Source: Promethearchaeota archaeon
GTDB taxonomy: Archaea > Asgardarchaeota > Lokiarchaeia > Sigyniarchaeales > SOKP01
DNA: 64,000 nucleotides
NCBI GenBank assembly: GCA_016839555.1
Contig: JAEOUA010000012.1
Coordinates: 96,001 to 160,000 of the forward strand
Direction of reading: 5' to 3'
Position 1 is the first letter of the stretch; each line of letters starts with the position of its first letter. The position numbers and the translations under genes are program-made. Under the pieces are notes generated by a model. That model was not told the origin of the DNA, made no database searches, and was given only the letters and a program-made list of their open reading frames with translations. Positions 14,549 through 58,427 of the stretch are shown one piece after another.

Positions 14549-14596
14549 AATACAACCAAGAAAAAAAGTTCAAACCAAGATTTTTTTGGTTGTATT
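14549..14596 (-). promoter_or_regulatory. Putative attenuator hairpin/U-tract between the Ile/Leu/Val leader and porG
   Basis: Perfect 11-bp inverted repeat AATACAACCAA/TTGGTTGTATT overlapping the leader stop, enclosing a second TCTTGGTT copy and a T7 tract on the transcript strand. Confidence 0.6.
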
Positions 14597-14699
14597 ATAA
14601 AATTGAAATAATTACTACTACTTGTAGTAATAAAATTACAATACCTAATAATAATAAGTTTAGAACTGGTGCTGCATTATTATAGTCCATAGAAATCAT
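14595..14699 (-). CDS. Putative Ile/Leu/Val attenuation leader peptide MISMDYNNAAPVLNLLLLGIVILLLQVVVIISIL (34 aa)
   Basis: Translated by hand; 19 of the last 23 codons are I/L/V; co-oriented and about 94 nt upstream of porG; alternative ATG at 14690. Confidence 0.65.
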   Translation of the reverse strand: MISMDYNNAAPVLNLLLLGIVILLLQVVVIISIL

Positions 14700-36229: not shown

Positions 36230-37849
36230 CTACTTCTCAGTTTGTTTATAAGACTGTATCTTATTTAGTCCTTTCAATAATGCAAGCACACTACTCATTA
36301 CAATATCTTCATGTGTGGCGCTGGTCGTTACTATATAATGAGTATCTAAATCCATTAATTCTATCATTACATTTCCAAGAGCATCACTTCCACCGGTAAT
36401 AGCGTCGATATTATATTCAAGCAATTTTACTCTACTCATTGGTTCAAAACATTTAACTATGGCTTTTACAGAAGCATCTACAGGTCCAACACCGGTTGAT
36501 GATGCTAATTTTTCAATAAATTCTCCATTGTTTTTGATTTTAAGACGAACAGTGGAAGTAGGAGTTATAGAACCTGTTAATACTGTCAATTCATCGAGAA
36601 TAACATATTGTTCTTCTTCTGGAAGCTCTCCCATAACATCTTTCACGATTGCGAGAAAATCTTCTTCGGCAACTTCGTGCCCCTTATCTCCGTATCTTTT
36701 GACATTTGTAAATATCTTCTGAAATTGTTCATCTGAAGGATGAATCCCTAAGTCTTCTAATTTGGCTTTAAGCGCATGACCTCCTGTATGTTTTCCCAGC
36801 TTAATAGATTGTTTTACAATTTCTTCTACATTGTCTGTTCTTTTAATGCCGATTAATTCAGGAGTGATAGGCTCATATGCTCTCGCATTTTTGATCATTG
36901 CATGGGCATGAATTCCTGATTCGTGAGCAAAGGCATTCTGTCCTATTAAAGGTTGGAGACGACCAATTTTAATCTTGCCCCCGCAATAGCTTTCTATGAG
37001 TTTTGCGGTAGGAAATATTAATCTTGTATTTATATTCATTGGTACTTGATAAAGAGCATATAGAGACATCGCAGTTTCTTCAAAAGAAGCATTGCCAGCC
37101 CGCTCACCAAGCCCCATAATGGTTGTTTGAGCCTCTGACGCTCCATTTTCAAAACCTGCGATGGTGTTTGCTACAGCTAATCCAAAATCATTATGACAAT
37201 GAACTGCAATTCTAATATTTTTTGGTAAAGCTTCATAGTTTTGTCTAACAATAAATCCAAAGGCATTTGGGGAGATAGTGCCCACAGTATCAGGAATATT
37301 GACACGCGTGGCCCCATGCTCAATAGCTGTCTTATTCGCTTTTATTAAAAAATCAAGATCAGATCTCGTAGCATCTTCAGCTGAAAATAAAACTTTTTCA
37401 TAATGATCCTTCGCATAAGATACATGTTCAGCGATGCTCTCTATAACCTCTTGAGGGGTCATTTCTAGTTTTTCTCTCATATGTAATTCTGATGTGGCGA
37501 TAAAGACATGGATACTATCCATATCTGCCTCGATAACTTTATCTATATCCAATTTTTTCATCCGTGCTAATCCAATGATCTCGGAATTTAGTCCTAATTT
37601 TGAAATATCTCTACAAGCAGCAAAATCTCCCTCTGAGATTACGGGAAATCCTGCTTCAATAACATCAATTCCAAGCTCATTTAATGAGCTTGCTATTGAT
37701 AACTTCTCTTCGTGTGTGAACGATATGCCTGGAGTCTGCTCACCATCACGAAGAGTTGTATCAAAAAAATAAGCCTTATCAGGAAGCAATAGATTCTTCC
37801 TTAGCTTTTCCATCATAGTCGAAACATAAATTTCCTTCTTTTCCATCAT
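36230..37849 (-). CDS. leuA: 2-isopropylmalate synthase (LeuA/CimA family, with regulatory domain)
   Basis: DTTLRDGEQTPG, HCHNDFG, GERAGNA, HESGIH, GVGPVDA; upstream Leu-rich leader favours LeuA over CimA. Confidence 0.85.
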   Translation of the reverse strand: MMEKKEIYVSTMMEKLRKNLLLPDKAYFFDTTLRDGEQTPGISFTHEEKLSIASSLNELGIDVIEAGFPVISEGDFAACRDISKLGLNSEIIGLARMKKLDIDKVIEADMDSIHVFIATSELHMREKLEMTPQEVIESIAEHVSYAKDHYEKVLFSAEDATRSDLDFLIKANKTAIEHGATRVNIPDTVGTISPNAFGFIVRQNYEALPKNIRIAVHCHNDFGLAVANTIAGFENGASEAQTTIMGLGERAGNASFEETAMSLYALYQVPMNINTRLIFPTAKLIESYCGGKIKIGRLQPLIGQNAFAHESGIHAHAMIKNARAYEPITPELIGIKRTDNVEEIVKQSIKLGKHTGGHALKAKLEDLGIHPSDEQFQKIFTNVKRYGDKGHEVAEEDFLAIVKDVMGELPEEEQYVILDELTVLTGSITPTSTVRLKIKNNGEFIEKLASSTGVGPVDASVKAIVKCFEPMSRVKLLEYNIDAITGGSDALGNVMIELMDLDTHYIVTTSATHEDIVMSSVLALLKGLNKIQSYKQTEK

Positions 37850-37891
37850 TTTATTTTCCTATTCTAATTTAATTTAATTTAAAAATCAAAT

Positions 37892-37947
37892 GCCTTCTTA
37901 ATCGTATAAGATTTTTAGCCTCTAAATCTTATTACCAATTAAAAGGC
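37892..37947 (-). promoter_or_regulatory. Putative attenuator hairpin between the Leu leader and leuA
   Basis: GCCTTTTAATTGGTAATAAGATTT pairs with AAATCTTATACGATTAAGAAGGC (few bulges), followed by ATTTGATTTTT. Confidence 0.65.
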
Positions 37948-37950
37948 TCT

Positions 37951-38055
37951 TTATAATAATAAGAGTAGATTTAATATACTCAAAGATAAACTAAGGGATA
38001 AAATCTGTTTTAAATTTAGTTTTCTAAAAAGTATCGTGGTTTTCAATTGAAGCAT
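37951..38055 (-). CDS. Putative Leu attenuation leader peptide MLQLKTTILFRKLNLKQILSLSLSLSILNLLLLL (34 aa)
   Basis: Translated by hand; 15 of 34 residues Leu, ending in 5 consecutive Leu codons; AAGGA upstream of the ATG; about 100 nt before leuA. Confidence 0.72.
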   Translation of the reverse strand: MLQLKTTILFRKLNLKQILSLSLSLSILNLLLLL

Positions 38056-38261
38056 TTTTATTCCTTAGTAATATAATTGATATAAAAAATTAATTTTAGA
38101 ATTAAAAATTTATGATTCTTTTTTTCCTATTAAATCGAGCCTTCAGAATAAGTCATATGATTAATAAAAATTGGCTATTTGTTTCGTGTATGATAAAGTA
38201 TTAATATTAGATCATTATTAGTATAAATCAAACCAAAAAATTTAATAAAATTGTGATTATT

Positions 38262-38678
38262 ATGCCTAAAGCTGAAATAACAAAAGAAATTAAAGCATCT
38301 GCAGAGCGAATTTACTCGATATTAAAAGACAGAGAAGCAAATCCAGTTTGGAATATTACGGTAAACGAGGTCAATATACTCTCCGATACAAAAGCAAATT
38401 ATAAAACGACTGTCGGTGATTTAACACTTACCCTTACCGTAGATAAAAAGAATGAAAAGATTTTTAATGATGTAGAGGGAAATCCCTTAATGAAAACAAT
38501 GGAATATTCCATTAAAGCAAAAGGGGATATCTGTGATGTTACTATTGCCGCTGAATTTCCTGAACCAGACCAGGAACCTATATTAAGGACAGCGGGAGAT
38601 GTACTTTTAGTAAGTTTAAAAAAATATGCGGAATATTTAGAAGAAGGTGGAGATCCAAGCTCATATAAGAAAAAATAA
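38262..38678 (+). CDS. SRPBCC/START-like family protein
   Basis: IKASAERIYSIL..PVWN; C-terminal LKKYAE helix; paralog at 56334. Confidence 0.75.
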   Translation: MPKAEITKEIKASAERIYSILKDREANPVWNITVNEVNILSDTKANYKTTVGDLTLTLTVDKKNEKIFNDVEGNPLMKTMEYSIKAKGDICDVTIAAEFPEPDQEPILRTAGDVLLVSLKKYAEYLEEGGDPSSYKKK

Positions 38679-38749
38679 ATCTATTACAAAATCATATTTT
38701 TTTATTTTACTCTAATTTTTTAAATCTAAACCAAATTTTTTTGATTATA

Positions 38750-39937
38750 TTATAATCTTTTTTTTAAGATTTCCGCCATATCTTTTGAATTTAATTTCAC
38801 AGGATTGTTTTTTAAGCCAGTTAATTCAACTATTTTATCAATATCATCTTCGGTTATCCCATACTTTCCTAAGCTTTCTAAATGAAGTGTTTTTGTCCAG
38901 TTATCCAAATTAGTTATTAGAATCTCTAAATATTTTAACATTTCAGTATCTATGCTTCCTGATTCATTTGCAAGTAGCGCGCCTATTTTAGCATGCTTTT
39001 TCAAGGATTCTTTTCCCTTTTCACCCATTTCTTTTAATTTCTCTATATTCATATTTACCGCTTCCGCTAAAAGGGTTCCACATACAACTCCGTGAGGTAT
39101 CTCAAACAAACCACCAATGGAAGAAGCAAAACCATGAACAATTCCCAATCCTGCATTAGCAAGAGTAATCCCTGACATTAATGAACCATATGCTAAAGCT
39201 GTCCTTACTTTAATATTATCTTGAGCATTAGTGCATGCAGGAATGAGATTATCTTTCATATATTTCATACCACTATACGCTAAGGCATCAGTCATAGGAT
39301 TTGCCTTTGTAGATACATAAGAACCATAAAGTTGCGTAAACGCATCCATTCCGCAAGCGGCTGTTATAGAAGGAGGACAACTAAGTGTTAACTCGGGATC
39401 GATGATAGCTATGTTGGGGATGTAATTATCATGCCGTAAGGATTTCTTAAATCCATCCTCACCCACTTGGCTAATAACCGCATTTTTTGTTGCCTCGGAA
39501 CCGGTCCCTGAGGTCGTTGGAATCGCAATGAATGGTATTTTTTCTCCATCAGGTTTTTTGGTTCCAACTCCCTCTAAATAATTTTTTATTGAGTCTTGCT
39601 TTGGGATCATAGCTGATATTGCTTTTCCCGCATCTATTACAGACCCTCCTCCAATAGATACGATTACATCCAAGCTTTCTCTCCTGTATTGCATAGCATA
39701 TTCATCAACCAAGGAAGGGGATGGTTCACTTGAGACTGAAACATGAGAAGAAGTTATTCCCAATGTTTCCATATTTTCTATGATTTTTTCCCACGTGCCA
39801 GATTTTTTTAAAGAACTTTCACCAATTACAAAAAGTACATTATTTCCGAAAGAAGGTATTATATTGAATAAATCTGAAAGTTTTCCTGGCCCAAATATTA
39901 TTTTTGGAATACTTGCAAATTCAAAAGGTAAGATCAT
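38750..39937 (-). CDS. Iron-containing alcohol dehydrogenase
   Basis: GGGSVIDAGK, PTTSGTGSEAT, GMDAFTQ, HG..HGVVC; ATG at 39937 preferred over TTG at 39976. Confidence 0.92.
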   Translation of the reverse strand: MILPFEFASIPKIIFGPGKLSDLFNIIPSFGNNVLFVIGESSLKKSGTWEKIIENMETLGITSSHVSVSSEPSPSLVDEYAMQYRRESLDVIVSIGGGSVIDAGKAISAMIPKQDSIKNYLEGVGTKKPDGEKIPFIAIPTTSGTGSEATKNAVISQVGEDGFKKSLRHDNYIPNIAIIDPELTLSCPPSITAACGMDAFTQLYGSYVSTKANPMTDALAYSGMKYMKDNLIPACTNAQDNIKVRTALAYGSLMSGITLANAGLGIVHGFASSIGGLFEIPHGVVCGTLLAEAVNMNIEKLKEMGEKGKESLKKHAKIGALLANESGSIDTEMLKYLEILITNLDNWTKTLHLESLGKYGITEDDIDKIVELTGLKNNPVKLNSKDMAEILKKRL

Positions 39938-58237: not shown

Positions 58238-58373
58238 TCTTTTTCATTCATTTCTTTTTTTCCTTAATTTTTATTAAAATTAATACAATCTCTTGTTTTA
58301 TAGATTAAAATTATAAAAAATATAACAGAAAATTATTCAATATAAAAATTCATAATTAGCCATTGCACACGTT

Positions 58374-58427
58374 CTATTCGTGCCAACGCCAAGCCCAAAA
58401 CCAAGTTTCGTTAAAAAAATAGGTCAT
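58374..58427 (-). CDS. Putative Trp attenuation leader peptide MTYFFNETWFWAWRWHE (17 aa)
   Basis: Four TGG codons within seven codons; local GC spike; hairpin spans the last Trp codons with the stop in its loop. Confidence 0.75.
   Translation of the reverse strand: MTYFFNETWFWAWRWHE

Follow-up and report, generated by a model that had tools for sequence, protein, structure and literature searches.

The window, the 64,000-nt stretch of archaeal DNA analyzed here, carries leuA, encoding 2-isopropylmalate synthase, on its reverse strand. In this genome leuA is monocistronic, with a convergent aminotransferase gene as its downstream neighbor. A 403-bp divergent intergenic region lies upstream of leuA and contains a short, leucine-rich leader ORF. 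The LeuA N terminus (M-x-E-K-x-[ED]-I-x-V-S) is kept among relatives while its codons change synonymously, which argues that the ATG at 37849 is the real start; 101 nt separate it from the leader stop codon. A LeuA/homocitrate-synthase-like paralogue with 33% identity to LeuA is found on contig C6 of the same genome (C6:114125-115324), and its reading contains one in-frame TGA, which may point to a pseudogene, to two separate genes, or to recoding. The features of the leuA locus, in the order in which they would be transcribed, are as follows.

38101..38111, reverse strand: BRE/TATA-like box AAATTTTTAAT, about 46–57 nt upstream of the leader ORF ATG, a putative promoter element
38061..38066, reverse strand: Shine–Dalgarno (SD)-like AAGGAA of the leader ORF, 5 nt before its ATG; GGGAT/AAGGAAT in orthologues
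37951..38055, reverse strand: leader ORF, 34 codons plus stop, MLQLKTTILFRKLNLKQILSLSLSLSILNLLLLL, with 15 Leu and ending in LLLLL before the stop, read from the sequence and from orthologous upstream ORFs (uORFs)
37954..38001, reverse strand: Leu-rich putative sensor track, the last 16 codons, between a weak 5′ hairpin region and the stop
37892..37947, reverse strand: hairpin B, outer stem GCCUUUUAAUUGG/CGAUUAAGAAGGC and inner stem AAUAAGAUUU/AAAUCUUAU, from folding and covariation
37881..37891, reverse strand: AUUUGAUUUUU directly after hairpin B, specific to the window copy
37850..37891, reverse strand: A-rich linker with the leuA ribosome-binding site AGGA (37860..37857), at conserved spacing
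36230..37849, reverse strand: leuA, 2-isopropylmalate synthase, 539 aa (NF002085, 572 bits against a cut-off of 517)

The leader ORF and its hairpin

Fifteen of the 34 leader codons specify leucine and are written as TTA (seven), CTT (three), TTG and CTA (two each), and CTC (one). Over its final third, the ORF consists almost purely of Leu codons. The initial annotation of this DNA had described the ORF in these terms, with five different Leu codons and an AAGGA ahead of the ATG, and the sequence bears it out. GGGAT/AAGGAAT is kept at positions −13 to −8 of the orthologous uORFs, and AGGA and AGGT are about two-fold enriched at −16 to −6 of genes in this genome. Further upstream, a AAATTTTTAA / ATATTTTTAAA motif stands at equal distance (about 50 nt before the uORF) in most orthologous leaders, and a transcript start is predicted some 20–25 nt before the uORF.

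The genome has a G+C content of 29.6%, and junk ORFs rich in Leu, Ile, Lys, or Phe are therefore common. A leucine content of 44%, as in the leader ORF, is reached by only 4 of its 9,390 ATG-initiated ORFs of 25–50 aa. When intergenic short ORFs ending in at least four identical residues were collected (n = 26), the strongest downstream hairpin of the set was that of the leader ORF, which was also the sole case to combine a Leu run and a hairpin with a gene about 100 nt further on. The leader ORF and its hairpin are thus not a product of chance.

Hairpin B follows the leader stop after a spacer of 3 nt (AGA), as expected from the earlier description of an approximately 22-bp hairpin at this distance. 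It spans 56 nt and contains 12 + 9 pairs, 21 in all, with a folding energy of −17.1 kcal/mol (z −3.45). None of 200 dinucleotide shuffles folded as well, and none of 400 gene-downstream 60-mers sampled from this genome reached −15 kcal/mol. As for hungry-codon frameshifting through the hairpin, both other frames stop inside hairpin B in the window copy.

Conservation, covariation, and a product-matched isoleucine leader

leuA orthologues were gathered from related Promethearchaeota/Promethearchaeia (Asgard) MAGs and yielded 54 distinct upstream sequences. These sequences share one layout: a promoter-like box, an SD, the uORF, a terminal Leu run with its stop, the hairpin, and an A-rich linker with an SD before leuA. 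An alignment of leuA upstream regions had been proposed with the initial annotation, and across these Asgard sequences the frame, the Leu content, and the positions of uORF and hairpin are all kept. The orthologous uORFs have 25–49 codons (mostly 31–38) and end in 4–7 Leu codons, which adjoin the stop or are separated from it by no more than two other codons. Codon and linker composition were counted in 46 of the 54 sequences. Leucine makes up 87% of the last 6 codons, with 2% for Ile, Val, Phe, and Met together, and 61% of the last 16 codons against 14% in the remaining peptide; at codons −16 to −7 the figure is 45%. All six synonymous Leu codons are used. A Leu-only tail written with six synonymous codons argues for selection on the codons rather than on a hydrophobic peptide. 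U accounts for 51% of the Leu track, which has a hairpin on either side.

Hairpin B starts 1–7 nt (median 3) past the stop in 54 of 54 sequences, with a length of about 54 nt, a median folding energy of −19 kcal/mol, and a z-score of −4.5. RNAalifold returned no structure on the plain MAFFT alignment of the leaders. A 15-pair consensus for hairpin B, built by mapping single-sequence folds onto the alignment columns, scored above every shuffle and every slid control on the same plain alignment. The leaders were then re-aligned with a covariance model, which gave compensatory changes in 15 of 15 pairs, 104 double-change cells compared with 48.8 ± 8.2 in shuffles (0 of 500 shuffles as high), and a covariation score of 0.341 compared with 0.13–0.21 for slid partners, all figures that lean high because the alignment is fitted to the structure and the sequences are kin. 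U–G pairs are frequent in hairpin B on the sense strand, which is the strand that G–U pairing fits. In the outer stem, the six core pairs invariably have a pyrimidine (C or U) on the 5′ side and a purine (G or A; AAGARGG-like) on the 3′ side; strand flips do occur in the inner stem. The loop sequences show no conservation among relatives. By these comparisons, hairpin B is a real RNA structure.

A second helix, hairpin A, lies within the uORF. GCUUCA (codons 3–5, often together with the AUG) pairs with UGAAGC about 45 nt downstream (codons ~14–19), and the two segments covary, although the hairpin is weak in the window's own copy. The N-terminal motif MK-LQ of the uORF is conserved, as would follow from this RNA pairing. 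When the hairpin arms, the Leu track, and the linker/SD were tested against each other, A5:A3 and B5:B3 were the only pairings above shuffles across relatives. The pairings A3:B5, A5:B3, Leu:B3, and Leu:R1 remained at shuffle level (z between −0.6 and +0.2), as did Leu:A3 and Y2:R2, and B5:SD, A5:SD, Y2:SD, and A3:linker had z-scores of about 0. Two competing folds had been suggested in the initial annotation. The first, between the Leu-codon segment and the hairpin's 5′ half, finds no support in relatives, where Leu:R1 has a mean z of 0.16, the level of shuffles. The AGCCU/AGGCU competitor, in which the first strand of the hairpin pairs with its own inner 5′ arm, does recur, but its strength is modest (Y1:R1 z −1.35; 41% of sequences below −1.5). 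Among the pairings tested, no mutually exclusive antiterminator helix (2:3 versus 3:4) is conserved.

Nor did these pairings include a conserved structure that occludes the leuA SD or AUG. The predicted unpaired probability of the leuA SD is 0.44 in the free leader and 0.48–0.55 under ribosome masks; whole-leader MFE folds under such masks are noisy in this AT-rich RNA. A role of the Leu codons as an anti-SD for leuA was rejected: pairing of the Leu run with the linker/SD reaches −6.8 kcal/mol compared with −8.3 kcal/mol in shuffles, and no covariation is seen. Some clades write the run with UUA only, and these runs cannot pair with the G residues of the SD since they contain no C. Pairing of the 5′ UTR with the leuA SD, present in one MFE fold, was likewise discarded, as inspection found no covariation. 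A cmscan of positions 37000–39000 against Rfam, with E-values up to 10, gave two chance-level matches to unrelated families, and Leu_leader (RF00512) was not matched. For a T-box or other riboswitch, the same search gave no family match, and the loops of hairpin B are unconserved.

In 50 of 54 sequences, 33–48 nt (median 37 nt) separate the hairpin end from the leuA ATG; insertions of 20–35 nt occur in the linker of three lineages. The linker, in our reading unstructured and about 40 nt long, is 53% A and 4% C, and the first 10 nt past the hairpin are 44% A and 38% U. In relatives, AGGU stands 8–9 nt before the leuA ATG within a shared motif, AAAUUUAAAUAGGUUAAA. The U-rich tract reported earlier behind the hairpin is present in the window copy (AUUUGAUUUUU), but it is not a conserved feature: a run of five or more T occurs in only 3 of 46 linkers, and such a run is found within 60 nt downstream of 52% of long ORFs in this genome, so that its presence here lies within chance. 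A simple consensus terminator scan found no site in the window copy, and gene ends in this genome carry T runs and no hairpins. These gene ends agree with published archaeal terminators, which are U tracts without hairpins that are read by aCPSF1; aCPSF1 binds U tracts, and its Lokiarchaeota orthologue does the same (PMC8716108). The linker also holds a TTTAAATA-like motif, whose reading as a second promoter was rejected because its transcript start would fall inside leuA, whose N terminus is conserved as protein.

A covariance-model search of this genome found exactly one copy of the element, at leuA. Across the class, the element occurs in 57 of 151 genomes, once per genome and only next to leuA, and 55 of these 57 genomes belong to the window's own family. 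Genomes of the class that have no leuA orthologue gave no covariance-model match. The element is absent from the leuA loci of the G+C-rich families of the same order and from those of Hydrothermarchaeota, Hadarchaeota, Methanocella, Nitrososphaeria, Altiarchaeales, and Bathyarchaeia. At one locus (L019/L073, genome G039, contig C95), the Leu leader and hairpin lie 362 nt upstream of leuA, not ~95 nt; a run of N and a duplicated A-rich segment stand in between, probably reflecting an assembly gap or an insertion.

The genome of the window encodes citramalate synthase (cimA; TIGR00977, 666 bits; L118:524-2122), and a comparable leader precedes this gene.

L118:309-407 (contig C1, about 99308-99406), upstream of cimA: Ile-rich leader ORF MLKYLSNHFLFFITMNIKIIPLEIILIIIGII, then stop

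A hairpin follows this ORF immediately (87 nt, −18 kcal/mol, z −5.5) and is itself followed by a linker of about 30 nt. The design recurs before cimA in about 20 relatives, where the ORF ends in IIGII(I) and the stop, for example MKKIIPINVIGIIAIIGII, and where the linkers measure about 30–48 nt. The stem AGAAAUUUUAAAC/GUUUAAAAUUUCU of the cimA leader is highly conserved in sequence, and its loop is U-rich. A Leu run before a leucine enzyme and an Ile run before an isoleucine-branch enzyme form the strongest argument that the codons are the sensor. No convincing third leader was found before the acetolactate-synthase-like genes of this genome. Two further ORFs of the window were noted in passing. 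A short ORF at 58372-58425 on the reverse strand, MTYFFNETWFWAWRWHE, has four TGG codons among 17 in a genome of 30% G+C and is a candidate Trp leader. The ORF at 14595-14699 on the reverse strand, MISMDYNNAAPVLNLLLLGIVILLLQVVVIISIL, has runs of Leu, Val, and Ile and is followed by hairpins of about −15 kcal/mol over 90 nt.

A probable ribosome-read sensor and its possible output

We consider it highly probable that the element is a cis-acting leucine sensor for leuA that is read by the ribosome. We infer that the leader ORF is translated and that a shortage of charged tRNA-Leu delays ribosomes along the Leu run, and likewise in which direction leuA responds and at which step. The tight distance of 1–7 nt from stop to hairpin leads us to propose that closed hairpin B is the OFF state and that a ribosome holds its foot open. 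The leading edge of a ribosome lies ~12 nt past the first base of the A-site codon, and at this spacing the foot of B can be reached while the stop or the final Leu codon is being decoded. Under a shortage of charged tRNA-Leu, a ribosome would crawl through the terminal Leu run or park there, its front edge at the foot of B. Parked over the final Leu codons, it would hold the bottom 3–7 pairs open and thereby relieve the repression. When leucine is plentiful, the ribosome would reach the stop and be released, B would close fully, and leuA expression would be lowered.

For the output, we tentatively favor co-transcriptional formation of a premature 3′ end behind B, by termination or cleavage in the all-A/U stretch that follows the hairpin. 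This step taken alone has somewhat less than an even chance of being correct, and much the same holds for the whole scheme of sensor, closed B as OFF, and parked ribosome opening the foot, which is nonetheless the best explanation that we have. As no antiterminator helix was found, the leader ribosome itself would act as the antiterminator. Hairpin A may shut the leader's own start after the first ribosome and so, as in trp, restrict translation of the leader to an early round, which would fit a one-off co-transcriptional decision. The A/U-rich first 8–10 nt past B also count for a co-transcriptional readout. Several observations stand against this scheme. The U tract after B is unconserved, gene ends here have no hairpins, and hairpin A is weak in the window copy. 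A stall would have to occur within the final one to three Leu codons to reach B; at the Leu codons before these (45% at −16 to −7), a ribosome would be held too far back, which should favor closure of B. In addition, B is covered further when a ribosome stands at the stop than when it stalls, and the scheme therefore needs fast release.

A translational output of the same leucine sensor is less likely, yet it is the foremost competitor. Here, the position or dwell time of the leader ribosome would alter initiation at leuA without any terminator, either because the purine-rich, SD-like 3′ strand of B is exposed as a landing site or through steric interplay across the hairpin. The strong conservation of the leuA SD and of the 36–37-nt spacing from B speaks for this output. 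So does the pyrimidine/purine asymmetry of the outer stem, which never flips in the six core pairs and suggests that a strand of B has a role when unpaired. No terminator is conserved, and terminator-free precedents exist in bacteria (bioRxiv 10.1101/834739; PMC1262725). What weighs against a translational output is that no conserved structure hides the leuA SD or AUG, predicted SD access shifting from 0.44 to 0.55 at most under masks, and that three lineages tolerate 20–35-nt insertions in the linker. Moreover, the sign comes out wrong: most simple coupling or reinitiation schemes would give more LeuA at plentiful leucine, and a biosynthetic gene needs the opposite.

Cleavage or altered stability of the RNA as the output of the same sensor appears improbable. 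An RNase III-family enzyme could cut closed B, which with about 21 pairs comprises roughly two helical turns, or aCPSF1/RNase J could cut the exposed Leu track, 51% U and set between two hairpins; a parked ribosome would shorten the helix or cover the track and so stabilize the leuA mRNA. This genome does encode an RNase III-domain protein (C11:207797-208336, L145/L146; a 253-aa ORF; PF00636, 58 bits against a cut-off of 27), and aCPSF1 binds U tracts, as does the Lokiarchaeota orthologue (PMC8716108). Of the 151 genomes of the class, 133 have the RNase III domain, as against 0 of 4 control model archaea, but the domain is present with or without the leader, and its co-occurrence with the leader is uninformative since the enzyme is near-universal in the class. 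Hairpin B has internal loops and no known cleavage motif, and a 5′ hairpin remaining after a cut should shield the RNA behind it instead of exposing it.

Finally, it is very improbable that the ORF encodes a small hydrophobic (membrane) peptide, or is untranslated, beside an independent hairpin (a protein-binding site or an upstream transcript end) with only a coincidental link to leucine: its C-terminal half would indeed be hydrophobic, its translation is putative, and MK-LQ is conserved, but the tail is Leu-only, with 2% Ile, Val, Phe, and Met in the last 6 codons, unlike membrane helices, MK-LQ is explained by the covarying GCUUCA/UGAAGC pairing, there is a single copy of the element per genome, always before leuA, a paralogous isoleucine enzyme is preceded by a leader of like design with an Ile run, and promoter and SD are kept before the uORF, not before leuA alone.

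Relation to known leaders

Ribosome-mediated attenuation is a textbook bacterial mechanism that requires coupled transcription and translation, and bacterial leader attenuation needs a terminator and a competing antiterminator. The Asgard element shares with enterobacterial leuL and with the his, phe, thr, ilv, and trp leaders a short ORF before the first gene of the pathway that is enriched in codons for the product. The control codons come late in the peptide, as they do in hisL and pheL, and as in classical attenuators, a stable hairpin stands between leader and gene and the leader start region is sequestered by a hairpin. The differences from classical attenuators are equally clear. The Asgard element is archaeal and has no conserved U tract, no 2:3 antiterminator, and no Rfam match; its leader ORF stops at the hairpin foot and not between regions 1 and 2, and the leuA ribosome-binding site is open, ~37 nt past the hairpin. 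The initial annotation had likened the locus to bacterial leuL, in which case a conserved U tract, hairpin terminators at gene ends, a conserved competitor formed by the Leu codons, or an Rfam match would be expected, and none of these was found.

Two terminator-free bacterial systems come closer. The LEU element upstream of leuA in Actinobacteria has a leader ORF with a Leu run and no obvious terminator, and its Leu codons pair with the leuA SD as the base stem of a pseudoknot (Seliverstov et al. 2005, PMC1262725). Like the Asgard element, it combines a leuA-specific Leu-run ORF with a compact structure between the Leu run and the leuA SD. In contrast, Leu:SD pairing is no better than shuffles in the Asgard leaders, and their structure is a simple two-part hairpin. 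In mycobacterial leaderless sORFs with poly-Cys runs, a stalled ribosome blocks a duplex that hides the downstream ribosome-binding site (Canestrari et al., bioRxiv 10.1101/834739). A run of codons for a single amino acid in a short upstream ORF, a stalled ribosome as the signal, and the lack of a terminator are common to that design and the one proposed here; however, no such duplex is conserved in the Asgard leaders, and the Asgard uORF, with its SD and 5′ UTR, is not of the leaderless kind.

In E. coli, the leaders of pyrBI and tna rely on the ribosome as the direct block of a terminator hairpin or of a factor-loading site; their signals are UTP or free tryptophan, and their termination is bacterial, either intrinsic or Rho-dependent. 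The logic proposed for the foot of B resembles theirs in that the position of a ribosome near the end of the leader ORF would be the switch, with no alternative helix. To our knowledge, Archaea have no Rho. Known archaeal terminators are U tracts read with aCPSF1/FttA (PMC8716108). The element thus lacks the terminator, antiterminator, and Rfam signature of the classical family, and it also lacks the SD occlusion of the sequestration type.

Full-text literature searches found no archaeal leader-peptide attenuator, and archaeal Ribo-seq papers only remark that sORFs in 5′ UTRs might act as uORFs. The balance of the evidence tips slightly toward the view that this Asgard class runs product-matched, ribosome-read gauges (Leu for leuA, Ile for cimA) of a design unlike every bacterial attenuator, as the first case of leader-peptide attenuation in Archaea and with an output step so far undescribed. 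Such an output could be, for example, the ribosome as antiterminator against an archaeal termination/cleavage factor, or an RNase III-type cut. With the classical RNA switch missing, the leaders would point to a new kind of output step. At ~260 nt, the element is small and can be tested in reporters, in vitro, or in the few cultured Lokiarchaeia. The leaders would offer a cis element with which to study how transcription is coupled to translation, and how transcripts end prematurely or are processed, in a setting with aCPSF1/FttA and a polymerase of eukaryote-like type. If such a conserved, product-matched leader pair operates in these archaea, the prokaryotes most closely related to eukaryotes, it would show that Archaea, too, use the translating ribosome as an amino-acid sensor.
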